DNA of 55,983 nucleotides, the filler included, from Stramenopiles sp. TOSAG23-6 (lineage: Eukaryota), in NCBI GenBank assembly GCA_900128565.1. It is 4 parts of 4 records of this genome, joined end to end, with 100 filler letters (N's around TTAATTAATTAA, not from the genome) between each part and the next. Parts side by side here need not be neighbours in the genome. Positions count along the whole stretch, not along the records: positions 1 to 13,961 come from LT636152.1; 3 more parts are not named here. One strand, 5' to 3'. Below, piece after piece: positions 1-49,957 of this stretch. The translations under genes were made by a program, and so were the position numbers. How positions within the stretch are numbered: position 1 is the first letter of the stretch; each line of letters opens with the position of its first letter. Below the pieces are notes generated by a model. The model saw only the letters and a program-made list of their open reading frames with translations. It made no database searches and had not been told where the DNA came from.

Positions 1-55
1 TTTGTACCTAACAATTTTTTTTAGTTTTTTTTTGAAATATTTTTCCAAAATACAT

Positions 56-2068
56 ACGGCATTGCATTTCCCAAAAAGAAACAATTAAAACGTTGGATAA
101 AACTAGAAGAAGAAGCAAAAAAAAGAGATCATCGAGTCATTGGAAAAAAACAAAAATTATTTGCATTTCATGAATCAAGTCCTGTATGTTTTATATGAAT
201 TTCCAATTTAATTTTTTATTTTTTTTATTTTATTTTTTTTTTAAATTTTTTTTTATTTTTTATTTTTTCATACGAAATTTCGTACCTAACGATTTTTTTT
301 TTTTTTTGAAATTTTTTTTCACACTACATGGTGCTGCATTTTTTTTACCTCATGGGACAAGAATATTTCAAAATTTGCTTTTATTTCTACGTTCTGAATA
401 TGCAATACGTGGATATAATGAGGTAATGACTCCATTAATGTTTAATCCTTCATTATGGAATACTTCTGGGCATTTAACACATTATCAAGAAAATATGTTT
501 TCTGTTGTTCCCGGCTCTACTAACCCTAACCCTACTAACCCTAACCCTAATTGTATGGAACAACATGAAAGAATGAATTTAAAACCAATGAACTGTCCAG
601 CTCATTGTGTTATTTATGGAATGGAAGGGTCAAGGTCATATAGACAATTGCCATTACGAATTGCTGATTGTATGTTTTCATTATTTTTTACTTTTTATTT
701 TTGAAAAAAAAAAAAAATTTTAATTTAAAAATTTTTTTTTTTTCATAATTTTTTAAATTTTTTATTTTTTTTTAATTTTTTTTAAATTTTTTTAAAATTT
801 TTTTTATATTCTTATAAAACATGTACTGCAATTCATCGAAATGAATTATCAGGAGCATTGGGAGGTCTTACTCGTCTTCGACATTTCCATCAGGACGATG
901 CACATATTTTCTGTACTCATGATCAAATTTCATCTGAAATATCTGATTGTTTGGATTTTGTTGAAAAAGTTTATTCTTTATTAGGGTTTACAATCAATTT
1001 AAAATTATCAACTCGACCTGAGAAGTCATTAAGTGGTAATAATTATAATACTAATAATTATAATAATGATGATAATTATAATTATAATAGTAATAATAGT
1101 AATAATAATTATAATAGTAATAATAATGATGATAATAATAATAATACTAATAATGATAGTAATGATAAAAATAATACTACTAATACTAATACTAATAATA
1201 ATAATGATAATAATACTAATAATTATAATACTAATAATAATAATGATAATAGTAACCCTGGAACAATAGTTGGCTCAGATATAGATTGGATGAATGCTGA
1301 AAATTCATTATCTGAAGCATTAACAAAAAAATATGGAAAAAATGGATGGTCTGTTGATCCAGGAGAGGGTGCATTTTATGGTCCAAAAATTGATGTGATT
1401 GTGACAGATGCTCTTAATAGAAAACATGTACGTTTTTTTCATTATGAATTTCACATTTTTTTTTTTTTTTTTTTTTTTTTTCAAAAATTTATTAGTTTTT
1501 TTTTCATAGTAAATTTCGTACCTAACGATTTTTTTTCTCAAAATTTTGAAATATTTTTCCAAAATACATGAACAAACTGCAGGTAAATTTCCTGTTTGGT
1601 TAAGTCCAAGACATTGCTCAATTATACCAATATCAAACGAAACTCATGGTGAGTTTGCAAAAGCAATTTGTAATAAAATGGTACGAAATCATATTTATGC
1701 AGATATTGATGATAGTGCAAATACATTGAATAAGCGTGTGAGAGATGCACAAATAAGTCAATATGTACGTTTTTTTTTCAATTTTTTTTTCGTACGAAAT
1801 TTTGTACCTAACAAATTTTTAATTTTTTTTTTCGTACAAAGAAATTCTAATCATTTGTTTTTTTAAATATTTCTTTACAAAACATAATTATGTTATTATT
1901 GTAGGTGATGAAGAAATTGGAGATTGGAGTGTGGGTAATGATGTCGAGAATGTTTTTGTAAATATCCGAAAACGTGATGGTGACGTCATTGGAAAAAAAA
2001 AATTATCAGAATTTATGAATCATATTCAAAATGAGATTTCGTGTCCTGAACCTTTTGTTGTCTCATAA
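56..2068 (+). CDS. TARS: Threonyl-tRNA synthetase, 5'-truncated; exons 56-183, 330-669, 823-1427, 1570-1764, 1886-2068
   Basis: Spliced translation gives [97 protein letters not shown]. The class II motif-3 segment (about 50 aa) is absent. Confidence 0.95.
184..329 (+). other. Non-canonical intron GT...CAT (palindrome+CTAAC at 271-290)
   Basis: cct|gtatgtttt...ctacat|ggt restores conserved SPG. There is no AG anywhere in the intron. Confidence 0.9.
521..550 (+). repeat. Interstitial telomere-type (CCCTAA)n tract inside a ThrRS exon (one of roughly 30 in the window)
   Basis: taaccctaaccctactaaccctaaccctaa encoding [10 protein letters not shown]. Confidence 0.85.
670..822 (+). other. Non-canonical intron GT...CAT (no recognisable palindrome)
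   Basis: gat t|gtatgtttt...aaaacat|gt act restores [10 protein letters not shown]. Confidence 0.88.
1428..1569 (+). other. Non-canonical intron GT...CAT (possibly two introns collapsed)
   Basis: cat|gtacgtttt...aaatttcgtacctaac...aaaatacat|gaa. The join is in frame but skips a conserved segment. Confidence 0.7.
1765..1885 (+). other. Non-canonical intron GT...CAT
   Basis: caa tat|gtacgtttt...aaaacat|aat tat gtt restores QYNYVIIVG. Confidence 0.88.
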
Positions 2069-2507
2069 CCTTTTGGTCCCTTTTGGTTTTGGTATATTTA
2101 TTGTATTGGGAATGTATACACCATAAAAAAATTGAAAGAAATAAAATTCATGAAAATTAAATTTATTTTTCGTTTTGTTGGTGTTGTTACAAAACAATTC
2201 AATCAAAAATAATTTCATTTTTTTTTTTTGATACCCTTTTTCTGGATATTATATATATATGAATACACTCATATTGTGTATACACAAAATTAAATGTCTT
2301 TTCATTTTTTCATATCTAAATTTTTTGATTTTTTGTTAAAAAATAAAAGTATAAAAAAATAATAGTAGAAATTTAAAGTTGGATGTACAACAAAAAATGC
2401 ATAACATTGCAAAGCAAAGCAAAGCAAAATAAATTCATATATTCACTTCATCATCATATATTGGACAAATCTGTTTTTGCCCAAACACACAGTAACAAAT
2501 TAACAAA

Positions 2508-4875
2508 TTAAAATCCTTTTTCATCATTTGTTCGTAAAGTTTTAAGTTTAATTCGTTTATGCTTTCTGTGAAGATGATTCACTTTGTTCACTTTGAGTTT
2601 TTTCTTTTGTTGATGATGAGCATGAGAAGAAGAATGTTCACTTTTGAATCGTGATTTTGAATCACCTGGTGTAAATAATCCTTGCAAACCATCCGAATAT
2701 CCGCTCACTTCTTCAGCGATTCTGGCTTGCACTTTTCGTTCTTGTTCTTCTTCCGAATATCTTGAAGGGTGCCGCAGCGAATCGCTGTAGGCTTTCGACG
2801 GTGGCTCATTCATTCTAAGCTTTCTTTCGGCTTCTTCGTATTGTTCTCGTGTAACCACTGATGGTTTACCATCTCTCCGCGCTTCATCCAACCTTTGCTG
2901 TTGTGCTTTCGTATCTCCAACATTTTTTATAGGGTTATAAATAGCCCAATTCTCATTGACAAGTGGGCGTTGTATCTCCAGATATTTTCCGATTATTTTT
3001 ACATGTTCAGGTGTAGCTGGAACTTTTGCAAGTTCATTTGCTGCAAACATATATTTTATAACCACATTAGCTGATGTATTTTGGAAAAATATTTCAAAAA
3101 AAAACTCTAAAAAAAATTGTTAGGTACAAAATTTCGTATGAAAAAAAAATTTAAAAAATTTAAAATAATAAAACGTACATTGTTCCATAATTTCAAGTGT
3201 AGCACGATCAAGTTGAATTTTTTTTTCAGCCTCTTTTTGTTTTTTTGTCATTCCAGCAGTAGTTCGATCACGAAGAACTGAACTGTTGGCTGTGTCAAGA
3301 AATGGGATTTGAATATCTTTTAGTTCATCTGATTTTGCAACCGCAACTCTTTTGGCCTGGTCATCGAGTGTATTCCAATTAGCAACTAGTGTTCCATCAA
3401 TATTTGGTGCAGACCCTGCAATTCTAGATCGCATAAATATTTCCCATTTGTCTCTATGCGATAAATTTTTACGTTTTCCACCCGAAAATTTTTTTTTGTC
3501 ATTTTCTAGCTTATCCTTATCTGCATACATTGGGAAAAATATATCAAATTTGAATTGTGTTAGGTACGAAACGTTCAATAAAAAAAAATACAATTTAAAA
3601 TTCATGATGAAAACAAACTGTTTTGGCTGCTTTGACTTTCTCCTGAAGTATTTGTTCAAATTTGCTCCTAACAATTTTATGAAATGTTATACCATGTTTG
3701 TGCTGCAACAAATTATTCCACGTTAGTCGCGTTGGTGGCGTTGGTGCTGCTGCTTGCATTTCGGCTATTTTCGCCCGAACTGTTGCTATTTGTTCGTCGT
3801 TCAATCCCTCGTTCAAGACGTCCACAGTTACATCCTGATCCTGATCCAGAATTTCTTTCTTAGCTCTCGCAGTCAAAAAATTATCCAATTGCTCATCTCC
3901 GTAATCTGACCGAAATGTTTTCAGTTGTTTTTCCAAAAACGGTTTAAACTCACTAGATTTTTTTTTAAAATGTTCTGGAGCATTTTGTGGCGGCTTCGCT
4001 AGCAAAAGATCGAGAAATATTTTCACTTCCTTTTCGAAATCTTCGACTTTAGTAATATCACGCATTGATACGAAAACAATATTTTCTACTACTTGTTTTT
4101 TTTCTTTAGCGTTGTTTTCCTTAGTTAGATGAGCAGTATCAATCTGATTAAAACTATCTGTAATATGTTTTCTAGTCTTAGGTCCAACTCCAATGTTTAT
4201 TAAGGCTGTATTCAAATCTCCTTCCGTCAACAGCGCCAACAAATGGTCAACTGCATTTTTTTGGTCGATTTCAAATTCTTTCGTAAAAGTCTGCCCAAAA
4301 TCCTCATTAAATATTTTCCCAAGAAAAGGAGTAGCGAAGAAATAAAACCATCTTTTCCACGATTCCGCTTTATCACGACTCTCCTTCGTATCCAGACTCT
4401 GTAGTGCACGGAATCCCTCGGGGTTTTTTTTTTTTAGATCATATGCTTTTTGCCATGCATCCTTCACTTTTTGTTGAACGAAGAATTCTGTTTGTGGTGT
4501 TACGTGTACTGCACCATCGTCTCCCCCCCATTTATCAGAATCTCCAACTTTTAACATTCGATCAGATATTTCCTTGTAGTTAACCGTTTTATCAGTTTTG
4601 GTACAAGAAGGTTGTTTGGGACGGCACATACTGTGGACTTCATAAATGAAACCATTCTCTTCCGTCAGTTCCATTTCAAAATCTTCTCTTGCATTGGATT
4701 GTGGTCTTAATTCTCCTATGAAACGATCCTTTTCTTTCTTAGCAGCTTCTTCGACGTCTTTGTCGGGTTTCTTCAAATTCGATTCGAGGTCCAAGACCGC
4801 CTTCGCCACGTTCATCATCGCCCAGGTTTGCCCAACCAGAGACAGCATCATCATTATCATCATCATAGCGTTCAT
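2508..4875 (-). CDS. Hypothetical secreted protein (~722 aa); exons 4875-3619, 3524-3179, 3073-2508
   Basis: Three track ORFs fuse in frame after removing two AT-ended introns. The N-terminus is signal-peptide-like (MMMIMMMLSLVGQTWA). No family recognised. Confidence 0.75.
3074..3178 (-). other. Non-canonical intron GT...CAT
   Basis: caa t|gtacgtttt...tacgaaattttgtacctaac...aaaatacat|ca gct, in frame. Confidence 0.85.
3525..3618 (-). other. Non-canonical intron GT...TAT
   Basis: aca|gtttgttttcat...tttcgtacctaac...caatgtat|gca gat, in frame. Confidence 0.8.
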
Positions 4876-5200
4876 CTTGAATAAAGTTGTAATTGTCTGC
4901 TGTTATTTTACTTTTGCTTTTACTTTTCTGTGAATTTTGATTGTGATCTTTTTTTCGAGTGGTGATGAATGATGAACGATTGATGCTCCTTCAATTTCAA
5001 ATTGCCGCGCGATGCGCCATCAAATTTATATCAGGACAGGAATGTTCCATACAAAATTAGGATTTCGTGTTTTTTAAATCAAATACCATTATTATGACAG
5101 TCAGTCGTCAAATTATTTTTGTCTTTAAAAATTCTAATCGAAAAATCACCTACAAAATAAAACAATAACAATTCCAACACTTTGCAATGATACAAAATAA

Positions 5201-5881
5201 ATGACAACTGTAAAAACTGTGGAAAAACTATTTTCCTTGTGGTCAAAGTTAAAGAAGAACCACCCTGCACTATATAAATGTTCTTTTGGTTTTAATAATA
5301 ACAAGAGACGTCTTGGTGTTGCTCGTTTTGGCAAAAATCCGCGAATAGAAATCTCAAAAAGAGCCCTAGGCTTAGGTGACAAGGTGCTTCATAATACGTT
5401 ACGCCACGAAGCTGCACATATTATCTCTGGTTATAGTGCAGGTCATGGAAATGATTGGAAAGAAATAGCAAGACAGATAGGATGTGACGGTGAACGTGTT
5501 GCGTCGGTTTCAATGCCAGAAACTGATCATAATTGGGAAATACACTGTCCCATGTGTGCACATGAGTATGTAAAAGAGCAAGAAGATAGTTCTTCCAAGG
5601 AACCAATTGAGAAAACGTATATAATAGCACGTTATTTTAGACGCCCAAAATCTTCAATATGGAAAAAACGTCAATGTTTGCGTTGTAAACAACCACTAAG
5701 AATTGTTCCAGCCGGTCAAAAACCTCTTTTATATAAATGGAAATTATGTTGTACAAATAATACAACTAAACATTGTAGTCATAGTAATCAACCATTGGCG
5801 TTTTATTACCGACGTCCAAAGAATGTATCAAATAAAATATGTAAGTCATGTCGATCAAATGTTTCTCTTCATCGTGTATGA
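5201..5881 (+). CDS. SprT-like zinc metalloprotease-domain protein with C-terminal Cys/zinc-ribbon motifs
   Basis: RRLGVA, TLRHEAAH, GHGNDWK and several CxxC pairs. Confidence 0.85.
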   Translation: MTTVKTVEKLFSLWSKLKKNHPALYKCSFGFNNNKRRLGVARFGKNPRIEISKRALGLGDKVLHNTLRHEAAHIISGYSAGHGNDWKEIARQIGCDGERVASVSMPETDHNWEIHCPMCAHEYVKEQEDSSSKEPIEKTYIIARYFRRPKSSIWKKRQCLRCKQPLRIVPAGQKPLLYKWKLCCTNNTTKHCSHSNQPLAFYYRRPKNVSNKICKSCRSNVSLHRV

Positions 5882-6159
5882 TAATGTATTGATATCAATA
5901 GTAATGTCACTTTGAGAATTAAGAATTGTCCAAAATTATAATGTATCATAATTTTTTAAATAAAAAAAATTGCACAAAATAAAATTAGTATTGCATGTAT
6001 ATCAGAGTATATTTATTTACATTATATTCATTGTCAATTATATAATGATTCAATTGACAATAAAACGTAATGATGGTTCCATCTAAAATATTAGAATGAA
6101 TTTGCTTTTGTCAGTCAATGACAAAATGACAAAATGGCAAACCATTTTTCACTTTCACT

Positions 6160-6876
6160 TTAGGCTAAATTTTCTTTCCGTTTTTCATATTTTTTTCGTC
6201 TTTTCAGTTGTTTTTCAATAATATTACTATTCTTTAATTCAGCTTGTTGCCTTTTTCGTGCCATTATCATTGTGAGACGCATTTCCTCTGCTCTATGTAA
6301 AGTTTTCTTTTCCTGGGCTACTCGGTACCAAGGGCAAAAACAGTGAAAGACACTAGTAGTCAAGGTTACTAACCAAAACTCAAGAAAAGGCAGAAACCAA
6401 TCAATAAACATTGTAGCAAGGCCAAGCCAAATCATAAATAAACATGCATTTCGAAATGTACATTGGTCCCATGCTGCACCAAAAATATACCATATTCCAC
6501 CATATCGTCTTTGTGTTTGTTGTTGCTGGTAGTGATGCAAGTTATTTTGATTATTTTGGCTTGATTGACTCGCTGTTCTAAGTGACCAATCATACTCCTT
6601 GCGTTTCTCTATATCGGAAAGAATTTCATATGCATTGGCGACCCGGATAAACTTTTCTTGGGCCCATTCGGTACTTGATGGATTCTTGTCAGGGTGAAAC
6701 TTTTTAGCTAATTTCCTATATGCCTGTTTGATGTCGGCCTCTGTTGCAGAAAAACTTACACCCAGTGCTTCATAATGATTTTTTGGTTCTCTCTCCACAA
6801 ATACTACAAGAAATACAGTCACAGATACAATCACAGATAATAATAGTGGAAACACTAGATTTTTATAAGATAACAT
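6160..6876 (-). CDS. DnaJ-domain membrane protein
   Basis: J-domain HYEALGV..IKQAYRKLAKKFHPDKN..AYEILSD flanked by hydrophobic segments. Confidence 0.9.
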   Translation of the reverse strand: MLSYKNLVFPLLLSVIVSVTVFLVVFVEREPKNHYEALGVSFSATEADIKQAYRKLAKKFHPDKNPSSTEWAQEKFIRVANAYEILSDIEKRKEYDWSLRTASQSSQNNQNNLHHYQQQQTQRRYGGIWYIFGAAWDQCTFRNACLFMIWLGLATMFIDWFLPFLEFWLVTLTTSVFHCFCPWYRVAQEKKTLHRAEEMRLTMIMARKRQQAELKNSNIIEKQLKRRKKYEKRKENLA

Positions 6877-7174
6877 TTGGAATTTCTTTTAAGCTACTAG
6901 AAAATAAATAATATATATGGAACTTTGAGTTTGAGTATTTTATTTTTCCATGTCAAAAAAACACAAATCAAAAAAAATATGACCGATTTTGAAATTCTGA
7001 TTTATTTCGTGTCAAACAAAGAGCGCATCAATTTTTTTTCGATCGATGACACTCTTCTTCTTCTTCGTCTCTCCAAGGTCTCTCTGTGCATGACAATTTA
7101 ATTGTATAATTTGACTTTATTAAAAAGATAGTCCTACTTATTTCGATAAAACGCATAATACTAACCACTTTTCA

Positions 7175-7609
7175 ATGGCAGAGCAAATACATATTCGCGT
7201 CAAAAGAAAGCACCAGACTATTTTTCTAGTGACAAAGTCGACGGACACTTTTTTTATGGTAAAGAATATGCTATCCAAACTCATGGGCGGCCAAGATGTC
7301 GCGAGTATGAAACTTTTAAAGTCAGATAAAGAAACAGTTCTTGAAGGTGATGTACGTATTCTTTTTGATGAACCTATGATAATGAATATCAAGTGTATTT
7401 TAATCTATCAAATGTGTATTTCTAAAAACTAACAGTATAATATACTTTGTTTTTTTCTTTTTATCATACAGGCAAAACTTGGTGACCATGAAATTCGCAT
7501 GGACGATATTATCTATGTTGTTTTTCAAAAGAGTGGCGGAAGTGGCTGGGNAAAAATTGATATTCCAGTATATAAAGAAGATGAAAAAAAAGAGAAAACT
7601 CAAAAATAA
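7175..7609 (+). CDS. Ubiquitin-like protein, elongin-B-like; exons 7175-7351, 7472-7609
   Basis: HIRVKRKHQTIFL N-terminus. Canonical GTACGT...CTAAC...ATACAG intron 7352-7471. Confidence 0.75.
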
Positions 7610-7755
7610 ATGGTAAAAAGTATTTTATTTTATTTAGTTTTTTAAATCTCAACTCATTGTAGTTGAACTTAAGTAGTAAGTATATAAATTAAATATAGTA
7701 CGTATCAATACCTACAAATATTTCATATTATTATAAAATGACCATCATCGACGTT

Positions 7756-10700
7756 TCAATGCTCCATACAATCCATATTGCTCTTTACAAGTACAGATTT
7801 TATTACCTGATGAGTAACTTCCTTTACTCTTTGATTTGTTGTTATACGAAATATATTTACTGAAGGTGCATGTAAGACACCACAGGTCACTGGCATTGCT
7901 CTTATACTAATCTTTATTTTTCCACAATTTTCATTTATTTGTAATCTTGCACATATATAGTGAAAATATATTATAAAAAAATAAACATTGTTTAGGTAAA
8001 AAAAATTAAAAAAAAATTTAAAAAAAAAATTGAAATGATGTAAATGTACACGTTTTACCCATGAGTAACCATGTCTTTGGAACTACCGTTATATTATATT
8101 CAAACTCATTACATTCACATTCAATCATTGCATCATCTACGTTATGTACTTGAACAATATATTCAAAATTTAATAAAACGCCTAATTCGCCGTGAGTCAA
8201 ATGTTTCGATTGAACAATCCAAAATTGATTGTCATCAATGCGACTTTGCATTTGAAAGACTCTTTTTTTTTTTTTTTNAATTGATCTTTTAGATTTTTTA
8301 GATTTTTTGGATTTAATTCTTCATTATCGAATGAATATACGGGTATGAATCCATACCGACAACCACCTCCTTTAGGCATCTTAAAATATATTAATACACT
8401 AAATGTATACGACTTATTTTCGTTTGCGTTAGACCCTAACCCTACCTCTGCAGTACTAGGGTTAGGGTTATTTTTTGAATATTGAGTCAGATCAAACGAA
8501 CAATATAAGGTACTATCTTTACTAACAAAATGCACAACATTTTCATCTATATTGAATATATCTACACTATTGACATCATCTAATGAAATATATCGAAATA
8601 ATGTAATACTTGTAATACAAATATTATCATCTTTAATCGATTTATCCTCTTTTTTTTCATTAGGGTTAGGGTTATACAATTTGTCTATATTTTCTATATT
8701 TTCTATATTTGTATTTACATTTACATTTTTTTTTTGATACAATTTATCTAAATTTTCTATATTTTCTATATTTGTATATAGATTATCAGATTGTATCATA
8801 CTACTTTTTGTGGCAACTGTTGATGTATCAAACAAACCTGCTGAAGGAAATATTTGAATTTGCATATACGTTTTTCGTGTTATTTTGTTTTTCGTGGTTT
8901 CATATGTACTAGGGTTAGGGTTATTTGAAGTAGTAGACATTGTTGTATTCATTATTTTACCTATACTCATAAATGATTCAAGGCAATTCAATGACACAAT
9001 TTGTTCAGCAACTTTATCTGAAATACTATTTATATAAGAATATTTTTTTTCTGTTGAAATCGATGACGTCATCGAAGAATTATTTTTTTCTGTTGAAATC
9101 GATGACGTCATCGAAGAATTATACACACATATTTTTATATTTGTTTCAAAACTCTGATTCATTAGGGTTAGGGCGGAAGGGTTTGATATATATATTGAAA
9201 ATAACATAGTAATCAATTGATCCTCAAATGATTTTTTCCTACTATTTTCGAAAGTGTTAGGGTTAGGGATATTGTCCATATCAACAAGAGGAGAAATCAA
9301 AAAATAATTCGACTTATTTGGTATTGAAACAGACCTGTATTTTACACCTTTATCATTTTTATCAGACGTATCATTTTTAATTATATTACAGTCGCATACA
9401 ACAAACTGTACGTGTGATTTTAATTGATTATGGTGTTTAGAATCATCTATAATTTCTAAAGATACAATATATGATGTATCATGATTTTTTAGATTTTTTT
9501 GATTTTTGTACTTATTTGGTACGGATAATTCAACCTTCAATGTATTACTACATTGCTGAAAATTCATGCAATTATCAAAATGTACATTTTTCAATGAAAA
9601 TGTATTTCGTATTTGTCGTTGTATCTGTTGTGATGGAGTAGCAATAATAGAATTCGGTGGAGTACATAATAAAGTACCGGGTAACTTTGGTGGATTCACA
9701 CGAATTCTCCAATCAGTCGTTGCTGCACTCACAACTTCATCATCATGTTCTTTGGGCAAATATGACTAGGGTTAGGGTTGAGGGTTTAGTTACAATTTGA
9801 AATGTATTTGATATATATATATATAGTAAGTATAATATATATTTCATCAATTATTATAAATTTGTCAAAAAAAAAAAAAAAAAAATTTAGGATGAAAACA
9901 AAAAAAAACCTACATAAATTTGAGCATCAAGAGTCAAACATCCAATTACAATTTGAACACAATCAAATCTATATATAGCACATAAAGATGGTGTTCCAAA
10001 AAGATTTACAATATTTCGTGTCTTATGCGATAAAATACCATTGGATTTCACTACGAATTCAGTATAAAAATTTTCATCATTATCATCATTTTCATCATCA
10101 TCATTATTATTACTCTTATTATCATCATTATTATTATCATTTTCATCATTATCATCATTATCATCATCAGCATTATCATTAGTATTATTATTATCATTAT
10201 CATCATTATATAATTTGGTTTTTATTTCTGAAAATGTATTTTTTGTTATCTTTTGTTGAGGTTCTAATAAAGCAACAACACCAAGCCTGACAATAATTTG
10301 ATCATATGGAATATCACTCGCAATATTTAATTGAATACAACATTGTATACAAATTTCATTACCTAAAGAAACTTCATATGAACCACCATCAATACTTGTG
10401 AAATCCATTTGTTGTTTTGTATTTTTTCCATTTTTTCCATTTTTTGTATTTTTTGTATTAGGGTTAGGGTTTGTATCAATAATTAGATTACTTCGTTTTC
10501 GACAGCGTTCCAAAGGACTTTGACATTTCGTACTTAATTTTGTACCTAATGAATTTTGAATGTCTTGTGGTTGTGTTGTATTATTAGGGTTAGGGTCTGA
10601 CTGTTTTGTATGAAAATTTTCTACTTTTTCAAAAGGAGCAACTTCACAAAATACTAAATAACGTAATGATTGTTGTAATTGTTTTTTACATTCAAAATTA

Positions 10701-13700
10701 TTTGTATTTACGATTTCATTTTTGATATTTTTGATATTTTTGACATTTTTGATATTTTCCAGATTTGATTCAGGTTTTATACTAGGATATTTCATTATTT
10801 TTCGTGTTTTGACTGATCGTACAATGGCTGATATATAACTTTTAAATATATTTTGACAATATTTTGAGTTTTGTGAATCATTTAAATTTTTTTCATTTTT
10901 TTCATTTTTTTCATTTTTTTCATTTTTTTCATCTATACTACTTGATAGTTCTTGTGTAAACATATCACCAAAACTAGTTTTGTTTTGTGCAATAAATTGT
11001 ATAACAGCTAGGTATGCTTTTATAGTATTAATAAAAAGTGCTGATGATGATTGATTAGGGTTAGGGTTTGACACATTCTCATTAGGGTTAGGGTTAGGGT
11101 TATATTGTATATACATTGCTTCTTGGCATTGAGCTGATAATGTCAATAAATGTAAATAAATAAAAGGCCAAAATCGTCTTTCATTTCGATATGGGACATG
11201 TCGTATTTTAGAAAGATACTCATTTGCTTTAAAAAACTGTTTACATTGTATCAAATGTTTTGTACAAAAATTCTAGAATTTTTTTTTTTTGGTTTGTTAG
11301 GTACAAAATTTCGTATGAAAAAAAAAATTTGAAAAAAAAAAAAAAAATTGAAAGTGAAAGTGAACACGTACATGGTGTATAGAAATATTATATAAATGTA
11401 AAGCCTGTCTATCTCGTTGTGCCTGTACATAAAACTTTGCAGCTTTGGAAGTTACTTTTGACATTTTATCTTGAAATAATGAATAATCATTCAAAACTTG
11501 AAACAGGTTTGTATCTTTCGATTCTGAATCAAATGTTGGTGTCCAAAATACTTTATATTCAGTCATTATTGATTTTGAAGTAATTTGTCCAGGAAACCAA
11601 AATTGAGTTTTGACTACATTCTTGTTCTTATTATTATTAGTAGTATTATTATTATTATTAGTAGTAGTAGTATTGTTATTATTATTATTATTGTTATTAT
11701 TACTATTAGTAGTAGTAGTATTGTTATTATTATTATTAGTATTAGTATTCTGAGTTTTGCATTCATCATTACTCAGTTGTTGGGATGGTTTAAATACTAG
11801 AGATTTAATGACAAATAATGTTGATGAAGCAATGGATAGTAAATCAGCCAATGCAATAAAAATTCGTCTCTTAAGACGAATTTTTTGTTTTTGACGTTTT
11901 TGTTGATTTGTACCAAATTTTGTACGTAATAAAACATCATTTGTATTGTCATATTCCTTTGCAGTGAATATTGATGCTGCTTCAATTGTAGATGCTAATG
12001 CAATTGATGCATGATATATCCAAGAATATACACGAAATCTTGATTCTTTATGTAAAACTAGTTTTTGAGATGATGCGTTATTATCATTATTTATAGTAGT
12101 AGTAGTAGTAGTAGTAATATCATTCATATCATCATTCATAGTAGTAGTAGTAGTAATGTCATTCGTATCATTATTTATAGTAGTAGTAGTAGTAGTAGTA
12201 GTAATGTCATCCGTATCATCATTCATAGTAGTAGTAATATCATTCATATCATCATTCATAGTAGTAGTAGTAGTAGTAATGTCATTCATATCATCATTCA
12301 TAGTAGTAGTAGTAATATCATTCATATCATCATTTGTGTACGAAAGCAAAATATGACGTAATTTCCGTATAGCCATAATAGACCGTTCAGCAGCATCAGC
12401 AACAGATGATAAATCATTGATACACAATAAAAGAATTATTTGTCTTGATACAAGATAAATTCGAAATTGAATCGTACTGATTAAACTTTTTTGTATCAAT
12501 TTTCTATAGAAATCTTTTTTTGTATGTGCCATTTCAAGAATTTGCGAACCATTCTCCGATTTTTGTAATGGTTTATCTAACATATGAATACAAAAATTTA
12601 GGTTTTGATTTTTTTTTTTCGCATTTTTTTGATTTTTTTGATTTTTTTGATGTTTCGGACTGGGACAGCTTTCATTAGGGTTAGGGTTTCCTGGTGGTGT
12701 TAATGGAATGTTTTCATGATTATCAAATTTGCTATCTTTAGTTGGAGGTGTAAGTGAGGATGGAATTTTCACTGTCGGTATATTTGATTTCAAATTATTA
12801 TTATATTTTATTTTTTCAAGATTTGGATTATTTGTCATTTCATCATTAGGGTTAGGGTTTATTATTTTTTTTATTGGAGTATGTAAAAGTGTAGCAGGGT
12901 TAGGGTTATTATTGAAACCTTGTTTTTCGTGTTTTTCGTGTTGTTGACGATGTAATGATATTGTATACATATATATATCATGAAGTATATCATATTCACG
13001 TAAAGCTTCTTCATCCAATTTTGAAAAATATATCAAATTCAAAATTCATAAGGTACGAAATTTTCATACAAAAATGTGTAATTAGGGTTAGGGTTATAGG
13101 GAAAAAAAAACCTACATATAAATGAAATGTTTCTAATAAAATAGCAAAATTCTCTCGAAGGTAAAAATAATTACAGAAATTCCAACCTGGCATGTATTTT
13201 GGAAAAATATTTCAAAAAAATCTAAAAAAACTCGTTAGGTACAAAATTTTTTGAAAAAAATAANTNGATTTTTTTNTAAAAAAAAAAAATAAAACATACA
13301 TCATACACTGACTCCAACGTTTTTCAATTTCTAATTTATATCGATCACAACGAGAATAAAATGTTTTACTAATGGAATTGGTAATGAATATATACAAATT
13401 TTTAAAACGATTTGTAGTTGTCATTGTAGAACTTGTATTCATTTGTGTTAGGGTTTCATTTCGTTGTTTTTCGTCGATGACTGTTGATGTTTGTATGGTA
13501 GATATATATTGTGAAAAATATTGTACATTTGAAATTTGTTAGGTACAAAATTTCGTAAGAAAAAAAATTCTATGATTAGGGTTAGGGTTAGGGTTGATGA
13601 AAACATTCGCTATTGTAGTATTATTTGTATTATTATTTGTATTATTATTAGTATTATTTGTATTATTTGTATTATTATTAGTATTATTTCTACTACTACT

Positions 13701-13908
13701 AATAATAGTCGTCTTTATAACCTTGTTTGTGTCATTTTGTTTATTAGGGTTAGGGCTTGTCTGAATTGGATTATTTTCGTTAGGGTTAGGGTTATTTAAA
13801 TCAATTTGAATGACTCGACGGGAAAATAAATTACTTGATTGGCCCACAGGGAATTTGAATCGTTTCCCATCAAAATCAGAACACATTTTCTCAAATATTC
13901 TAGAGTGT
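7756..13908 (-). CDS. TRAPPC10: TRAPP II subunit TRAPPC10/Trs130-like, 5'-truncated; exons approx. 13908-13609, 13503-13300, 13191-13116, 13012-11372, 11254-9914, 9765-8050, 7952-7756
   Basis: Spliced MPGWNFCNYFYLRENFA..LYEEALREYD and C-terminal WLLMGKT..AMPVTCGVLHAP match my recollection of the family. Apparent frameshift in the poly-A/N run near 8278. The acceptor of intron 9766-9913 (probably GT-AG) is uncertain. Confidence 0.8.
7953..8049 (-). other. Non-canonical intron GT...TAT
   Basis: acg t|gtacattt...tacctaaac...cactatatat|gt gca, in frame. Confidence 0.75.
11255..11371 (-). other. Non-canonical intron GT...CAT
   Basis: cat|gtacgtgtt...tacgaaattttgtacctaac...aaaacat|ttg joins two long ORFs in frame. 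Confidence 0.85.
13013..13115 (-). other. Non-canonical intron GT...GAT
   Basis: tat|gtaggtttt...aaattggat|gaa gaa restores LYEEALREYD. Confidence 0.8.
13192..13299 (-). other. Non-canonical intron GT...CAT
   Basis: atg at|gtatgtttt...aaaatacat|g cca ggt tgg restores MPGWNF. Confidence 0.88.
13504..13608 (-). other. Non-canonical intron GA...TAT containing three telomere-type repeats
   Basis: gc|gaatgttttcat...tacgaaattttgtacctaac...caatatat|a tct is in frame. The flanks are low-complexity, so the boundaries are less certain. Confidence 0.6.
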
Positions 13909-13961
13909 ATGTATTTTGGAAAAATATTTCAAAAAAAATCGTTAGGTACAAAATTTCGTAC

Positions 13962-14061
13962 NNNNNNNNNNNNNNNNNNNNNNNNNNNNNNNNNNNNNNN
14001 NNNNNTTAATTAATTAANNNNNNNNNNNNNNNNNNNNNNNNNNNNNNNNNNNNNNNNNNNN
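13962..14061. other. Artificial contig spacer (N-run, TTAATTAATTAA, N-run)
   Basis: Six-frame-stop linker; the same layout recurs at 28016-28115 and 42005-42104. Confidence 0.97.
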
Positions 14062-14226: not shown

Positions 14227-16050
14227 ATGTTAAGAGAGTCGGGAATTTTATGCAGAGACTATATTGTGCCTCATTTTACTATTAATTTAGATGATCCAGC
14301 TCATACAAGGTGGAAGCCGGTGATTGGTGCATACAAACATAAGTTTTCGCAGTTACTTACTGTACTTCACTCGTCATATATTGACTTTGAGAAATCGTCG
14401 GAAGATTTTTTTTCGCGACTTCGTGATGGACTTTTTAAGCAACTAAAAGATCTGGGCGCTGCGTATCTTGTAGATGAGCTGTGTTCTATTGCGAAACATT
14501 CCGATAATATTCTCTCCGTTAATGATGTGGTTCTTTTGCATCTTAGCTTAGAGGCTCTATCTGGGTGCACTTCGTGTATTTCACCTCCCCAAATTTGTAA
14601 AAGTGANCATGTTGGACCTTTTCTTGGGCGCACTCTTGATTGGGATATGCAAATTCTACGTGAGTTGACAATAGAAGTCAGTTTCAAATCTAGAGGAATT
14701 GAAATTTTTAGGTGTACTACATGGGCTGGATATATAGGAATACTAACAGGTTGTAAATGTGGGGCATATTGCGCNGCTGTTAATTATCGACAGGATTTGA
14801 ATACTGAAGAAATGAGCGGTTTTTCTTCTTGGCCTGTAGGATTACTCCTCAGAAATGTATTTGAAAATTGCAATTCATTCAATGAAGCTGTGCAACGCTT
14901 CTCTAATGCACCTTTGTGGGCTCCTTGCTATATATACGTTTTCATCACGAATTTCAAAATTATTTTTTTTTGTTTTTCATACGAAATTTTGTACCTAAGA
15001 ATTTTTTTTTTTTAGTAGTTACGTTTTCATCGCGAATTTCAAAAATTTTTTTTTTTTGTACTTATGATTTTTCGTACCTATTCCTACGATTTCAATTTTT
15101 GTAATTTTTGTAACATACCTAACAAATTTCAAATTATACGCATATTTTTTATGATACATCATTATTACAGGGACAAATAAAATGGAAGGTCTAATTATAG
15201 CAAGAAATGAAAAAAAGGTTCTTAAAATGAAAAGCTTGACAAATATAGGTACGCTTGTATCACTCAATTCAATTTATTTTTTTTTCGTACGTAATTTTGT
15301 ACCTAAATAGTTTTTGAAGAAAAATATTTTTCACAATACATAATCCCATGATAAATTACTAGTACAAACAAATATTGATTGGTTTAACGAATGTGATAAC
15401 CATTTTATGAATAGTGGAATGCGATTAGAAATTGCCAAAAACATTTGGGATAAATATATGTTTTCATCATTCATTTCAAATTTATTTTTCTTTCACAAAG
15501 AAATTTTATACCTGACGAATTTTTATACTCAACAAAATATTTTTTATACCTGACGAATTTTTATACTCAACAAAATATTTTTCACACTATATTTTTGAAT
15601 ACTACACAAACAAGAAAAAGTGATTCACTTCAACAACGAGAAATTAAATCTGTTTTGTGGACTATTCTGGGATCTAAAACCATTTGTGATGATTCGACTA
15701 TATACGCTACTCTGATGTACGTTTTCATCTTCAATTTCGATTTTTTTTTTATACCAAATCCTAAAGTTTTGTACCGAACAAAAAAATATTCAAATATTTT
15801 GCTTTAATTCATGTGTGTTGGTGAAAACAGTGACAAAACGGGTGGAAGTCACAATAGTTATATATATGAGACGAGAATTTGTAAACCTGAAAAGATTCAT
15901 TTTAAAAAAGAAGAAAATATAGGTAAAGATGATAGATGCGTATTTTTATATTCTATGGTATTAATTGGTGCCATACTTGTAATTATTTATATTATGAATT
16001 ATTGCGAAAACATAGGAGGATTCTTAAATATATCATATAATGAGTTATAG
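14227..16050 (+). CDS. NAAA/acid ceramidase-family Ntn hydrolase; exons 14227-14933, 15160-15248, 15342-15455, 15593-15716, 15813-16050
   Basis: FTINLDDP..RW, nucleophile GCTS, GRTLDW, TWAGYIGILTG, APCYIIITG, LVQTN, TIYATLM across four AT-ended introns. The true start may lie upstream. Confidence 0.88.
14934..15159 (+). other. Non-canonical intron AT...CAT, composite (three motif copies)
   Basis: tat at|atacgttttcat...gatacat|c att restores APCYIIITG. Confidence 0.82.
15249..15341 (+). other. Non-canonical intron GT...CAT
   Basis: ata g|gtacgctt...caatacat|aa tcc puts LVQTN in frame. Any leftward shift creates TAA. Confidence 0.87.
15456..15592 (+). other. Non-canonical intron AT...TAT with internal tandem duplication
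   Basis: aaa t|atatgttttcat...tacctgac (twice)...cactatat|tt ttg, in frame. Confidence 0.8.
15717..15812 (+). other. Non-canonical intron GT...CAT
   Basis: ctg at|gtacgttttcat...ttcat|g tgt, in frame. Confidence 0.82.
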
Positions 16051-17906: not shown

Positions 17907-20900
17907 ATGTCCCAAGCATCAAAATCTGCTCTAAATGACAAATTCTGGGACGGAAAGTTAGTTAGCCATAACGGTATGCTTGATGGTCTTGGGCTGCCTC
18001 AAACGATTCAAACGAAAAGTATCACTACTGTACAAAACGTAAAACAAGCACCCATGAAAAATGTATTAGATCTACATGAACATAATTTACCCCCTTATGC
18101 ACACAAAATAATATTGAAAATACAGAGCTTGTATCGGGCAAGAGTAGCTAGAAAAAATTATAGACCTCCGAGTTTAATGGAACGAAAGGCAGTCAAGGTA
18201 CAAACTGCTTGGCGTCGAGTATTGGGTAGATACCAAAAAGAAACCCGTGTATCCACCCTCTACAAAATGGCACTTGCCTTAGAAAAGGAGTATATGTTAC
18301 ATTCAGAGATTGGGGTAAGTAAAGCTTTGAGGAAAGTACTCCGTTCTAAAGAAGATGTAGAGAATTACAGGCCATCCATTGATGTCTTACGGCATAAAGC
18401 TTCGTCAGCTGCCCGACGTGTAGCTGAACTGCATAAAAAATTGAATCTCGCAAAGATTACACTGAAAGAAAGCACAGCAAAATTGTCGACCAAAGTGTTA
18501 GAATGCATTAATGCAAGAAATTTGTTAGAAACGGAAAACCCTGATGAAACCATTGAAAATTCGTTGTGGTTAAAAAAAGAGGAACTAGAAGACAGAAAAG
18601 AAAAGGTCAAGTATAATCAAAATAAAGTCAAATGTATAGAAGATGATATTGCTACAGCAAATCAATCTGTAGAGATTGCACAAAAAGCTGTTGAAACTAA
18701 GATACATAGTCTGAAAGAAAAACATGTTGCGCTATTCAATTCAAATAGTACGTTTTCATTATGAATTTCAAATTTATTTATCTTTTTGTACGAAATTCCA
18801 TACCTAACGATTTTTTTCAAAAATATTTTTTCGCAATACATTTGATCTTTCTATTGCAAAGGGAATATCCTTTCAGCGACAAACAACAATTAGAATTTCA
18901 CAGAAGTCAAAACTTTTGGCAAACCGTTGTGAAAGACAATCCATTCATTTTGAAAATATTGCAGTGGTATACAGAAAAGCACGTTTTCATTATGAATTTC
19001 AATTTTTTTTTTCGTACGAAATTTTGTACCTAACAAATTTCGAATTTACTTTTTTTTACAATACATGCTTCGGTGGATTCTGAAAATACAGCTTTAAANT
19101 TATTAGCTTGGAGAGAGTATTTTATATCCAGTGCAGCTAAATGTCTAGATAAAATTGGTTTGAAGTCATGGAATGAAGCATGTATAAAAACTTGGAAGTC
19201 ATGCAAACATAGATCACAATGTAAACATAGAGAGTTAAAAAGGGCAAATAGTGCAATTCACAAAATGAAATCTAATTCATCAAAATGGCTGGAAATTCAC
19301 GAGCNAGAGCTACGTACATTTGGTAAAGGTCCTTTGTTTGCTACTGTAAATAATTCAATGTATCCAGAAGTTGAAGAACACCTATGTTTCAAGCCTGCTT
19401 TACCGCCTGGTGAAGCGTTGAGAAGATCGAAAGTATGTAATACTAAAATTCCTACTTTGATAAAATTGAAGATAGAAATTGAATGTGCGTTACAACATGC
19501 TCTGGATCTTCTTCAAAAACGGCGGATTGATTTAGATGCATCCAACGAAGCTATCGCTAAATTCAATAGCAGATTAGAAAGGCACAATCAGCTTATTCAG
19601 CGTTGGAAAGCTTTGGCATCGTATCAGCGTGTTGCAGCTGCTGAGGCAGATAGACTAGCTCATAATTTAAAGTGTCAACTTTTAGAATTAAAAGAAGATN
19701 AATATTATGCACAATTGTCTGTATCGTCTCTGAGCAAGTCTTCGAGTAGTGACTTATCAAATCATCCCTGGATATGGTGGGGTGATGGTAGTCAGTATGG
19801 GGGTGTAGGATGTTATTGGTGGAAAAGTTGTGAAGCTGAGAATGTTCGATTATTTCAATGTTCCAAGGAAACTGCTATTGCGGCTGCTTTTGCAACACGT
19901 GTCGGCTTGTATGTAAGAGATGCNCACTTGGGTTCAATAGCAAAACAAAGGGAAGTAGATGCGTTTATTGATGCAGAACGAGAAAAGGCCAATTGTGCTA
20001 TTGAATTGGCTGAAAAGGTTGCATCAGAACTCGATATTAAAAGTAGAATTCTCTTGAGTAATGTAATTTTAGAAGTAAATGAAACTCAAAGAGAATACGA
20101 TGCATATGCAACAAAAGAACGCACAGCTAGTAATAAAGTTGTTAAAATAGTAAAATTAATAGATTCATATAAAATGAAAGAACGTAGCTCAAGAATAAAT
20201 ATAGACATGGAACCTTCTGTTGATGAAAATGTTCTAAAAAGGCAAAAATTATCCAGACTNATGAAAATAAAAGCTGCTAATACACAGATAGCTTCACTCA
20301 AAGAAAAATACAAAATTCTCGAATCAAATCGTCTTGAGATTCTTGTAGAATTGTCAGAAGTACAAACCCGACTTGCAAAGGCTCAAATGGGACGAGCTTC
20401 TACAGTTGCAATGATTGCGAAAATTGCGTGCGACAATGCTGTATCTTTAGCTAACGCCCATGTCATTAGTGCTTCGGTTATCAATGCAGCAAACATTGCA
20501 CGTCCTGGCAGAGAAAGGGCCAACAAATTAGTTGCAACTGGTAAAGTTTCTTGTGTAATAGCTGAAATATGTAAAAAAAATGCCATTGAGCAACACTCTC
20601 AATATCTTCACAAAAAGGCAACAGAGGATGAGAAAGAGCATATAGAATGGTTGAAAGCTAATTCGGATTCTTTAGAAGAAATTCGTTCAATCGAGAAAAA
20701 AGAGCAAAAAAGATTAAAAATAGTATCCAAAAAGGCTGCAATTCTTTACACCCGAGAACAAGAGACAGGTCGTGCTCTTGCAAGTGCAGAGTCTGATCTT
20801 ATTGAATGCGTACGGGATGCTGACTCCTCGCGAGAACGTTCAAAAGAGGAAATAAAGTTTGCAATAACAAAACAAGAAGATGCTGTGAAAACAGCTCGTG

Positions 20901-28015: not shown

Positions 28016-28115
28016 NNNNNNNNNNNNNNNNNNNNNNNNNNNNNNNNNNNNNNNNNNNNTTAATTAATTAANNNNNNNNNNNNNNNNNNNNNNNNNNNNN
28101 NNNNNNNNNNNNNNN
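28016..28115. other. Artificial contig spacer
   Basis: N-run, TTAATTAATTAA, N-run. Confidence 0.97.
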
Positions 28116-28170
28116 CGTACGAAATTTTATACCTAACGATTTTTTTTTGAAATATTTTTCCAAAATACAT

Positions 28171-28728: not shown

Positions 28729-29285
28729 TGAAGTATTGGATGTATGCATTGTTTTTACACGAAAACTCACAAATTGATTTAACAAATAAATTGGTAACTC
28801 TTTCAAAACAATACTTTTTTTACATACTTTGCTTCTTAGCAATACTTTAATATGCCTTTTCGAATTAGCTTTATATATATATATATATATATATAATAAG
28901 CATGTAGGAGTTGTATCATATACTATGCTTGTGTCGTCAATAGACCATCGAAACCTGAAGAGGCATGAAAGATTAAGAAAAATATTTCAAAAACTTTGAA
29001 ATAATGTTTTGTTAGGTACAAAATTTCGTATGAAAAAAAAAAGGNGTAAAGAAGAAAAAAGTTTATTATTCATAAAACTCTTCTACATTTTTTAAAATGA
29101 AAAAATCAAACACAGATCACTCATACACTACACACTTATAACTACATGTATACACACACTCACTCATAACGACATTTATACACTATACTCACAGACACTC
29201 ACAGAAGAACTTCATTAGGGTTAGGGTTAGTAGGGGGATTGAATACTCCTCTACACACTCAAACACTTATAGAATGAATTTCTTA

Positions 29286-35356: not shown

Positions 35357-36108
35357 ATGCCATCTCACAAGACTTTCAAAACCAAGCGCACGCTCGCTAA
35401 GAAGCAGCGTCAAAATCGCCCAATCCCACAGTGGATCCGCCTTCGCACGGACAACAAAATCAGGTAAGTCACTTCTTCCATTGTATAGAATCTTTACGTT
35501 TCCAGCTCTTGGTGAATATAGCCCACCTATTCTATAATTATCTTTTTGGTATGTATACATCCCAATATTCGGATATATATTTGACATATATACTTAAAAT
35601 ATTTCTGTATATGCCGATGCGGGATGTATTTATACCCAGTGTTAAGTCTTTTCTACCTCAGGTGGAAGACATTTCCCAACTTTTCGTATGTTCTAGAAGT
35701 CTGACTTGTTCTAGAAGTCTGACTTGTTTTAGAAGTCTGACATAGCGTTTGTTGCTAAAGTATACGTGTCTCAAATTCTTGTATCGTGTATCATTACATT
35801 TGATGAACATTATAGTAAGATTACTGTATAATGATATCATAGGTAGTACAAGAAGTTGTAGACATGTACTACTGACTGCACTCTAGACTTACGGTTTTAT
35901 CGTGGCTTGTTTCCTGATATTTATTGAATAATATTCTACAAACAACTCGTTACTATACATATTTCCCCGTATATTAAAGGACATATGTTATTCTTGTATC
36001 ACCAAAGACTTATCTATTAACATTTTTCTACACGTTATACTATATTTCCATCACAATAGGTACAATGCTAAACGTCGTCACTGGCGTCGCACTAAACTTG
36101 GTCTCTAA
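35357..36108 (+). CDS. RPL39: 60S ribosomal protein L39; exons 35357-35463, 36060-36108 (missed by the ORF track)
   Basis: [51 protein letters not shown]. Canonical GTAAGT...TAG intron 35464-36059. Confidence 0.97.
35691..35741 (+). repeat. 18-bp tandem repeat, about three copies, in the RPL39 intron
   Basis: ttctagaagtctgacttg units. Confidence 0.85.
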
Positions 36109-40793: not shown

Positions 40794-40891
40794 GTACGTT
40801 TCATATGAATTTCTAATTTAAGTTTTTTTTTCATACGAAATTTCGTACCTAACGATTTTTTTACAGAAAAAAAATATGTTTCATAATACAT
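40794..40891 (+). other. AT-ended intron-like segment linking two unrelated genes
   Basis: The donor belongs to the EGF gene (phase 0) and the acceptor precedes the Pif1 exon (phase 2). Confidence 0.7.
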
Positions 40892-42004: not shown

Positions 42005-42104
42005 NNNNNNNNNNNNNNNNNNNNNNNNNNNNNNNNNNNNNNNNNNNNTTAATTAATTAANNNNNNNNNNNNNNNNNNNNNNNNNNNNNNNNNNNNNNNN
42101 NNNN
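42005..42104. other. Artificial contig spacer
   Basis: N-run, TTAATTAATTAA, N-run. Confidence 0.97.
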
Positions 42105-47094: not shown

Positions 47095-47248
47095 GATCAG
47101 ATTAAATGAAGCTGGGGTAAGACGGAGAAAGACGAAGGAGAAGAAAGCGAACTCAACAGTTGTTTTTGTTTTGTGTGTTTGAAGTTTTGAGGAGTAGAAA
47201 AGGATACTGTTGTTGAGCGGCAAAATACATTTGAATTTTGAGGGATTT

Positions 47249-47396: not shown

Positions 47397-47510
47397 ATTT
47401 GACCACGAGTTCGACACACACAACATGATTTCTCTGCTTTGCGTCTTCTTCGCCAGTTGCCTCGTCAAAAGTCAACACAATCAAACTATCCGCATTGATC
47501 ATATTTTGCG

Positions 47511-48851: not shown

Positions 48852-49957
<1,106 letters not shown>

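Follow-up and report, generated by a model that had tools for sequence, protein, structure and literature searches.

Is the short palindrome that adjoins a branch-point-like CTAAC in the introns of an uncultured marine stramenopile a device of the RNA, or is it a trace of mobile DNA? The question is raised by positions 271-290 of a 55,983-nucleotide stretch (hereafter the window; four parts of four records joined by filler letters, positions 1 to 13,961 being from LT636152.1) of the genome of Stramenopiles sp. TOSAG23-6 (GCA_900128565.1), where TACGAAATTTCGTACCTAAC, a perfect palindrome followed by CCTAAC, lies within an intron of a threonyl-tRNA synthetase gene. A preliminary description of this DNA had proposed either an RNA hairpin or factor-binding site that presents the branch point and licenses an AT acceptor, or a transposase-type binding site in the DNA. 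On the analysis reported here it is somewhat probable that the palindrome forms the centre of a family of introner-like introns, probably derived from a transposon, that have CTAAC as their branch site and AT as their 3' end.

The window was searched for the 14-mer TACGAAATTTCGTA with up to 2 mismatches and 28 matches were found, compared to a mean of 0.61 and a maximum of 2 in 100 dinucleotide-preserving shuffles of the window, while the core CGAAATTTCG with up to 1 mismatch gave 23 matches (2.85 expected) and the 20-mer TACGAAATTTYGTACCTAAC, with Y at position 11, occurred exactly 13 times. The recurrence, previously put at more than 25 copies, is real and far above chance. About four of the 28 matches (11911, 27103, 43864 and 50356), found in coding sequence and with no CCTAAC after them, appear fortuitous; CCTAAC is also missing from a perfect copy at 54756. 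Due to the core being its own reverse complement, every copy also scores on the opposite strand. With up to 4 mismatches there were 24 sense-orientation copies, oriented with the flanking reading frames, and none of the gene-internal copies was antisense to its host gene, in agreement with the placement of the motif within introns in the sense direction.

An alignment (A1) of 24 rows was built from 23 window copies and one copy from a metagenome contig (L001), the copy at 13941 being left out. CCTAAC followed the palindrome directly in 21 of the 24 rows, as had been described, and TACCTA was invariant, a result that is partly circular because the rows were chosen by motif similarity. The C-to-T variant, noted earlier as common, in fact outnumbers the perfect palindrome (15/24 copies). 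At 271 the palindrome is perfect over 14 bp, but its reported extension to 16 bp does not hold there, the preceding base being A; the perfect 16-mer GTACGAAATTTCGTAC was absent from the window, and L001 holds the sole example seen. In 9 of 10 frame-supported introns 32-45 nt separate the end of CCTAAC from the end of the intron, and in the tenth 73 nt, so that the 35-65 nt first given for CTAAC was roughly right. Among prokaryote genomes (596 billion bases) the 20-mer was matched exactly once (L002, 6187-6206, in coding sequence of a Bacteroidales bin), which is a chance match; there were no matches to it in viral contigs and no matches in an Rfam scan of the window at gathering thresholds. 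Among sequencing runs, one seawater metatranscriptome contained 0.06 of the words, which is not taken as a sign of habitat or expression.

The motif was found to be the middle block of a whole repeated intron, T-rich and approximately 90-160 nt long, with the layout GTAYGTTTT(CAT..GAATTTCAAA), T run, CR-TACGAAATTTYGTA-CCTAAC, T run, (GAAATATTTTTC)CAMAATACAT. The 5' end GTAYGTTTT is often followed by CATTATGAATTTCAAA and then by a T run of varying length before the C-R, while CCTAAC is followed by R, the second T run, often GAAATATTTTTC, and CAMAATACAT. When 12 full-length copies (11 from the window and one from the metagenome contig) were aligned with MAFFT, identity peaked at the T run, palindrome and CCTAAC, over the last 15 or so bases and over the first 6-9 bases; similarity spanned both intron ends and stopped at the exon borders, with unrelated exon flanks. 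A 22-nt 3' block is letter-perfect in 7 copies, and 9 occurrences of a 25-nt 5' block were found when up to 6 mismatches were allowed. The remainder of each intron is therefore not mere diverged poly-T/A, as the preliminary description had it. The block that it placed after the T tract, GAAATATTTTTCCAAAATACAT, is letter-perfect in 7 copies.

The hosts are unrelated (threonyl-tRNA synthetase, acid-amidase-like, TRAPPC10-like, IQ-motif and EGF/teneurin-like genes) and belong to different Pfam families or to none, and copies occur at a density of about 1 per 2 kb of the window. Two single introns (14934-15159 and 54402-54562) contain two tandem family units, and a scan of metagenome contigs gave one further copy, that of L001, with the same ends and in frame. 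As in introners, then, similarity extends to both intron ends and not into the exons, and the copies lie in unrelated genes.

Removal at GT...AT was assessed in 11 motif introns in which an ...ACAT end is clear and the reading frames before and after the intron are long. Ten of the 11 joined in frame, where 1 in 3 would be expected by chance; the one that did not, 40794-40891, has a PIF1-like fragment after it and is possibly chimeric. P0122, a 755-residue threonyl-tRNA synthetase of a related species, aligned without gaps across four points, SSP/G (183/330), D-C-T (669/823), SQY/NY (1764/1886) and, on the 3' side, /EQT (1570), and P0241, a distant acid-amidase homologue, aligned across APCYI/IITG (14933/15160). 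These frame tests and five junctions support the earlier impression that the introns end in AT. Joins were also open for 3525-3618 and 15717-15812 (GT...AT), 13504-13608 (GA...AT), 15456-15592 (AT...AT), and 54402-54562 and 54712-54787 (both GT...AG). In 14934-15159 (ATACG) and 15456-15592 (ATATG) A replaces G at the start while the AT end is kept, and both are in frame; the former is supported by homology and could equally well be read as AT...AC after a two-base shift.

Shifted readings were also considered. With a one-base shift (TG...CA) the mRNA is unchanged at any exon-final T, and there sequence alone cannot separate the two readings; the shifted one was set aside, as GT suits a 5' splice site. 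The two-base shift (AT...AC) requires an upstream exon ending in AT; it is excluded at 184-329 and 670-822, which lack one, and could still apply to introns that have one. GT...AT thus appears to be the reading that fits all of the introns. The first boundaries tried for 9913-9802 and 8050-7953 were not open, and at 9913 both CCCTAG/ and CATAT/ are in frame; AG and AT are both possible acceptors for copy 44460, while the acceptor of copy 48747 and the join of copy 52013 are undecided.

Ordinary GT-AG introns coexist with the family in RPL39 (35464-36059) and eIF4E (47905-48335), both of which, read by eye, lack the motif, as had been stated. The eIF4E intron (431 nt, not T-rich, no palindrome) starts GTATGTTTTATTTCAAATT and ends CACAATACAG, the latter being the same ten bases as in several family introns with G replacing T. 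The proposal that the palindrome licenses an AT acceptor is not supported from either side: AT ends are found with neither palindrome nor CTAAC (670-822), with the right half only (3525-3618, 15717-15812) and with a decayed copy (13192-13299, 15456-15592), while perfect palindromes are found in AG-ending introns, two in 54402-54562 and one, with CCTAAC missing, in 54712-54787.

The pattern of decay bears on which part of the block is retained. At least five decayed copies (3567, 13242 and 49009 on the minus strand, 15074, and the 15717 unit) keep TTTYGTACC+TAAC and have lost TACGAAA, while the reverse was seen once, at 54756; the symmetry itself is therefore not what lasts. The likely ancestral block has four CpGs (CG-TACG-AAATTT-CG-TACCTAA-CG), of which the one before the palindrome is intact in 10, the first within it in 22, the second within it in 7, and the one after CCTAAC in 8 of 24 copies. 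In the second eIF4E intron (48500-48610) the palindrome halves are separated by approximately 50 nt (CGAAATGT ... ACATTTCG), as though something had inserted into a copy.

A pair of copies was also found in a position that is not intronic. The start codons of cyclin B (47094, minus strand) and eIF4E (approximately 47513, plus strand) flank an inverted repeat with arms TGTATACGAAATTTTYGTACCTAAA at 47248-47272 and 47373-47397, 25 nt long, 96% complementary and 100 nt apart, each arm being the intron module with one extra T. Local alignment of the arm to the introns scored 36-37, compared to shuffle maxima of 27-32. The element starts GTATACG on either strand and its plus strand ends GTATACAT, and it looks like a small inverted-repeat element with the family end signals in both directions; alternatively, the pair could be a bidirectional promoter element or overlapping 5' untranslated region (5'-UTR) introns. 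With respect to the features of miniature inverted-repeat transposable elements, this intergenic inverted-repeat element is the only example in the window, and no duplication is clear on its flanks. The whole-intron repeat family and an intergenic inverted repeat made from the 25-nt module lend some support to a transposon-type site at the DNA level, the second of the original proposals.

The intron ends are themselves mutually inverted (GTAYGTTTT / AAAATAC), and 13 of 22 introns follow an exon with AT as its last two bases, compared to an AT dinucleotide frequency of 10.5% (P = 4e-8). A Helitron 3' end, a candidate prompted by the PIF1-like fragment, was rejected: Helitrons have 5' TC and 3' CTRR ends with a hairpin 10-12 nt from the 3' end and insert between A and T, while here the ends are GTAYG...ACAT and the palindrome is at least 38 nt from the end. 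The ends fit an insertion preference without duplication, an introner type already reported in the accessible portion of 10.1101/2022.06.06.494994. Tandem CGAAATTT(T) units (TTTCGAAAATTTTCGAAATTTTCGAAATTTCCGAAATTTCG) were observed in intergenic DNA at 54966-55006, where the palindrome core forms a short satellite. A heat-shock-element reading of GAAATTTC was discarded, there being only two units, with the wrong spacing in the intergenic copies.

In the favoured explanation, a short T-rich element would have been copied into many unrelated genes, bringing its own splicing signals: GTAYGTTTT at the 5' end, T-run-C-R-TACGAAATTTYGTA-CCTAAC in the middle and ...CAMAATACAT at the 3' end. CTAAC, located 32-45 nt before the end of the intron, would serve as the branch site, and removal would occur at GT...AT, some copies having changed G to A at +1 or T to G at -1. 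The palindrome would have been inherited as part of the element and would not be a stand-alone RNA device; its two-fold symmetry would most likely stem from a history at the DNA level, as an inverted-repeat module like those bound by transposases, and selection would now keep mainly the right half with CCTAAC, as an extended branch-site region, and not the symmetry.

A number of observations weigh against this explanation. No target-site duplication was found, and the 3' AT is constant where the upstream exon ends in CT, AG, TA or AA, so that it belongs to the element and is not a duplicated target; nor was an autonomous element or transposase found in the window. There is one non-intronic site, the copy pair, in 56 kb, and it could be a promoter or 5'-UTR introns. 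The splice junctions are read from frame and homology. The GT-AG eIF4E intron has the 5' GTATGTTTT and 3' CACAATACA contexts in common with the family, and part of the family similarity may therefore be the general splice consensus of the organism. One pair of an alternative RNA stem considered below (24/34) covaries. Finally, the contrast between 22/24 and 7/24 intact CpGs within the palindrome hints at a sequence-specific constraint on its left half, in copies that are non-independent and were chosen by motif similarity; as an argument for selection it is weakened by the linkage of position 11 to the base after CCTAAC, which suggests subfamilies.

Introners are reported to be commonest in marine protists and to have varied end structures (10.1101/2022.06.06.494994, in the portion available). 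Like those of Micromonas, Aureococcus, Symbiodinium and Acanthoeca (10.1101/2022.06.06.494994 and PMC12130899, each in part), the present family belongs to a marine protist and has numerous near-identical members distributed over unrelated genes, with similarity ending at the exons, own splice sites, and ends that resemble terminal inverted repeats. The families described in the accessible text of these sources end GT/GC/GA...AG (or AC), and the curation in PMC12130899, in the sections available, lists only AG and AC as expected 3' ends, whereas the present family has AT at the 3' end, no target-site duplication was seen in it, and a central palindrome is fused to a branch-site motif. The non-canonical introner elements of Amoebophrya are likewise repeated non-GT-AG introns with inverted repeats in a marine protist; according to the excerpted account they have short direct repeats at their borders, their inverted repeats join the intron ends, and their end dinucleotides are highly variable (PMC7789003). 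In the present family, by contrast, the ends are uniformly GTAYG...ACAT and the strongest symmetry is internal, beside a yeast-like CTAAC. In the tunicate Fritillaria borealis most introns reportedly escape GT-AG, with AG-AC and AG-AT ends, and are thought to be transposon-derived; the host there is an animal, the end dinucleotides are other than those seen here, and the introns are not known to have an internal palindrome in common. In the full-text literature the motif strings matched unrelated primers only and GT-AT introns were mentioned only as rare variants; no description of a GT...AT intron class was found in the available parts of the literature on this lineage and on introns, the supplementary species tables of the introner surveys not being covered.

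The variety of intron ends (GT-AT; AT-AT in 14934-15159 and 15456-15592; GC-AT in 18979-19066; GT-AG) resembles that of minor-type introns, among which GT-AT and AT-AT are known rare ends according to the partial sources available, in which the related stramenopile Blastocystis is also said to have hundreds of minor introns. This raises the possibility, unlikely in our estimate, that the motif is a sequence-specific site for a trans factor (a protein or a co-evolved U2- or U12-like small nuclear RNA, snRNA) in a specialised splicing route that tolerates non-AG ends, in which case the branch-binding stretch of U2 or U12 would be changed to fit UACCUAAC or the upstream UUUYG. Such a route would be consistent with long and conserved 5' and branch-site motifs and with the coexistence of ordinary GT-AG introns in RPL39 and eIF4E. 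Physarum polycephalum offers a parallel: as far as the available text goes, its minor introns have expanded with a co-evolved U12 into a massive U12-type family of proposed transposon origin, with inverted ends, non-canonical dinucleotides including GT-AT and a transformed branch motif (10.1101/2020.10.12.336362). The Physarum motifs given there are GTATCTT and TTTGA 9-12 nt from the 3' end (10.1101/2020.10.12.336362, in part), and those here GTAYGTTTT and CCTAAC at 32-45 nt.

The signals themselves do not resemble those of minor introns. The consensus GTAYGTTTT departs from the U12-type 5' splice site RTATCCTT, being GTAYGT and not RTATCC at its start; and in place of the U12-type branch site TCCTTRAC, within about 45 nt and usually 10-20 nt of the end and without a pyrimidine tract, CCTAAC stands between two T runs at a distance of 32-45 nt (once 73 nt) from the end. 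With yeast, where the branch site is UACUAAC, the family shares a GTAYGT 5' end and CTAAC at a typical branch-site distance; we read GUACCUAAC as UACUAAC with one extra C, and the module differs from the yeast site in that C (UAC-C-UAAC), in approximately 14 more conserved upstream bases and in the 3' AT. The AG-ending eIF4E intron with the same 3' context suggests that one machinery serves both kinds of intron, AT ends exist without the motif block (670-822), and no snRNA was matched in the window by Rfam. The bolder version, in which transposons spread a class defined by UUUYGUACCUAAC, perhaps paired to a co-evolved U2- or U12-like snRNA, into a second, transformed splicing route is likewise improbable. 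It would tolerate G or A at +1 and T or G as the last base (GT-AT, AT-AT, GC-AT and GT-AG); if true, the class would be a large share, perhaps most, of the introns of this genome, and, with AT as its standard ending, would make this stramenopile a second case like Physarum.

It is quite unlikely that an RNA structure, either the self-paired palindrome (GUACGA/UYGUAC) or a UYGU/ACRA stem extended by GAAA/UUUU, presents or masks the branch site. In 24 aligned copies none of the 6 pairs of the self-stem had changes on both sides, and 83.3% of cells were paired, the mean for shuffles being 83.4%; in 10 of 25 copies (24 from the window and L001) a pair was broken by sequence changes, and the hairpin formed in 2 of 8 whole-intron folds, with fold z-scores of -0.04 to -2.05. 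These results do not support the self-pairing hairpin of the preliminary description. Its supporting argument, that C-to-T keeps a G-U pair, is correct as to pairing, but CpG decay or a subfamily would account for the change just as well, since C or T at position 11 is linked to G or A immediately after CCTAAC. The 4-bp UYGU/ACRA stem, in which the palindrome's right end pairs with the bases downstream of CCTAAC around a loop containing ACCUA, fared better: 84.4% of cells were paired, one of its 4 pairs covaries (U-A 9, C-G 6, U-G 2, other 7), the covariation score was reached by 3 of 500 shuffles and the number of double changes by 7 of 500, and the stem is present in the minimum-energy folds of introns 184-329, 3074-3178 and 18979-19066. 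The signal was lost when the outer GAAA/UUUU stem was added (81 of 500 shuffles), and the stem would pair the presumptive branch adenosine. Because the covarying pair is single, joins two CpG sites and was observed in related sequences, which can beat shuffles without any structure, it may only mark two subfamilies, and the stem is a weak lead. Pairing of the 5' splice site GUAYG with CRUAC immediately ahead of or within the palindrome occurred in 3 of 8 folds but was rejected, there being no covariation of Y(+4) and the R that precedes the palindrome, with C opposite A in 6 of 16 copies read.

It is very unlikely that there is no mobile family and that the palindrome arose by chance within very long homogenised splice signals such as those of intron-poor yeasts, for although GT-AG introns have GTATGTTTT and CACAATACA in common and the right half beside CTAAC survives in decayed copies, blocks of 22-25 nt that are not splice sites are identical letter for letter between copies, tandem units occur in single introns, the module forms an intergenic inverted pair, and the RPL39 intron has none of these features.

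The palindrome copies, family introns and related features of the window are listed in the table.

Table. Palindrome copies, family introns and related features in the window
Feature	Position	Strand	Support or remark
Motif copy, perfect palindrome and CCTAAC	271-290	+	In intron 184-329, threonyl-tRNA synthetase gene
Family intron GTATG...CTACAT, 146 nt	184-329	+	Frame; SSP/G gap-free against P0122
GT...AT intron, threonyl-tRNA synthetase gene, family 5' end, no palindrome or CTAAC	670-822	+	D-C-T against P0122
Family intron, motif 1507-1526 (TAGTAAATTTCGTA)	1428-1569	+	Frame; approximately 47 residues missing against P0122
Family intron, motif 1793-1812	1765-1885	+	Frame; junction SQY/NY
Family intron, motif 3119-3138	3074-3178	-	Frame
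GT...AT intron, right half only (TTTCGTACCTAAC)	3525-3618	-	Join open
Family intron, motif 11296-11315	11255-11371	-	Frame
Family intron, decayed left half (CAAAAAATTTTGTACCTAAC at 13234-13253)	13192-13299	-	Frame
Intron GAATGT...ATATAT, motif 13538-13557, telomere-like repeat inside	13504-13608	-	In frame
Motif copy adjoining assembly gap, 5' part of intron missing	13941-13960	-	Sequence match
Double intron, two tandem units, ATACG...ACAT (A at +1)	14934-15159	+	APCYI/IITG against P0241
Motif copy 14980-14999 and decayed copies 15074, 15115	within 14934-15159	+	
Family intron, motif 15288-15307 (TACGTAATTTTGTACCTAAA)	15249-15341	+	Frame
Intron ATATG...CTATAT (A at +1), decayed duplicated motif (ATACCTGAC twice)	15456-15592	+	In frame
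GT...AT intron, right half kept (TTTTGTACCGAAC)	15717-15812	+	Join open
Family intron, motif 18789-18808	18748-18841	+	Frame
Family intron GCACG...ACAT, motif 19015-19034	18979-19066	+	Frame
Motif copy adjoining assembly gap	28118-28137	+	Sequence match
Motif copy, intron ends not established	29011-29030	-	Sequence match
Family intron, EGF/teneurin-like gene, motif 39248-39267	39210-39300	+	Frame
Family-type element, motif 40834-40853; 3' join out of frame, PIF1-like fragment after it	40794-40891	+	
Motif copy, acceptor AG or AT	44460-44479	+	Sequence match
Left arm of intergenic inverted repeat, TGTATACGAAATTTTCGTACCTAAA (motif with one extra T)	47248-47272	+	
Right arm of that repeat, at a distance of 100 nt; start codons of cyclin B and eIF4E on either side	47373-47397	-	
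Motif copy (TACGAAATTTCATACCTAAC), acceptor undecided	48747-48766	-	Sequence match
Motif copy, decayed CCTATA, first of two in T-rich stretch from 51648	51683-51702	+	
Motif copy shortly upstream of ATG; tested join out of frame	51875-51894	+	
Motif copy followed by CACAATACAG (AG replacing AT); putative join	52013-52032	+	
GT...AG intron ending ACAAAG, two perfect motif copies 54434-54453 and 54507-54526	54402-54562	+	Join open
Probable GTTGTT...CAACAG intron, perfect palindrome 54756-54769, no CCTAAC	54712-54787	+	Join open
Motif copy in intron from 55859 running off the window	55934-55953	+	

An existing protein record illustrates the consequence for annotation. P0121 is letter-identical to exons of the window (186-2065), yet it contains translated intron, reading the palindrome and CCTAAC as IRNFVPN, and skips true coding parts; the existing gene model thus reads through family introns, and it is built on GT-AG assumptions. 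If RNA confirms the junctions, the family would have AT, and not AG, as its standard 3' end, in a lineage of uncultured marine predators for which published gene models assume GT-AG and would be systematically wrong. It would add a case of bulk intron creation by transposon-like elements, here with a non-AG acceptor, which bears on how strictly the spliceosome needs a terminal G, and the uniform long branch-site module would make the choice of branch point and 3' end directly testable.

The repeats also seem to have caused breaks or collapses in the assembly. Compared to P0122, the threonyl-tRNA synthetase lacks approximately 47 residues (QCATIQLDF...ERFIAMAL) exactly at intron 1428-1569 (window 1427-1570); an exon was likely lost by assembly collapse between look-alike introns, a real deletion being the alternative. 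The gaps at 13962-14061, 28016-28115 and 42005-42104 each consist of two N runs around TTAATTAATTAA, and two of the three adjoin a motif copy (13941 and 28118) just upstream of the palindrome, where the T run sits elsewhere, such that T runs or repeats seem to break contigs. Directly after a family element there is a PIF1-like helicase fragment (40887-41636; Pfam PF05970, E = 8e-8), out of frame with the upstream EGF-like gene and followed by assembly gaps, which may be chimeric or belong to a mobile element.

The region around cyclin B and eIF4E (46000-48000) has a G+C content of 0.40-0.43, compared to 0.20-0.38 elsewhere; the cyclin B open reading frame has 366 codons and no intron, and its nearest database protein is P0001 (85% identity). 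Telomere-like CCCTAA/TTAGGG runs were observed at 517-550, 10480-10500, 13560-13582, 45556-45598, 49040-49065 and other positions, and occur in coding sequence (where they are read as NPNPN), in introns and between genes.

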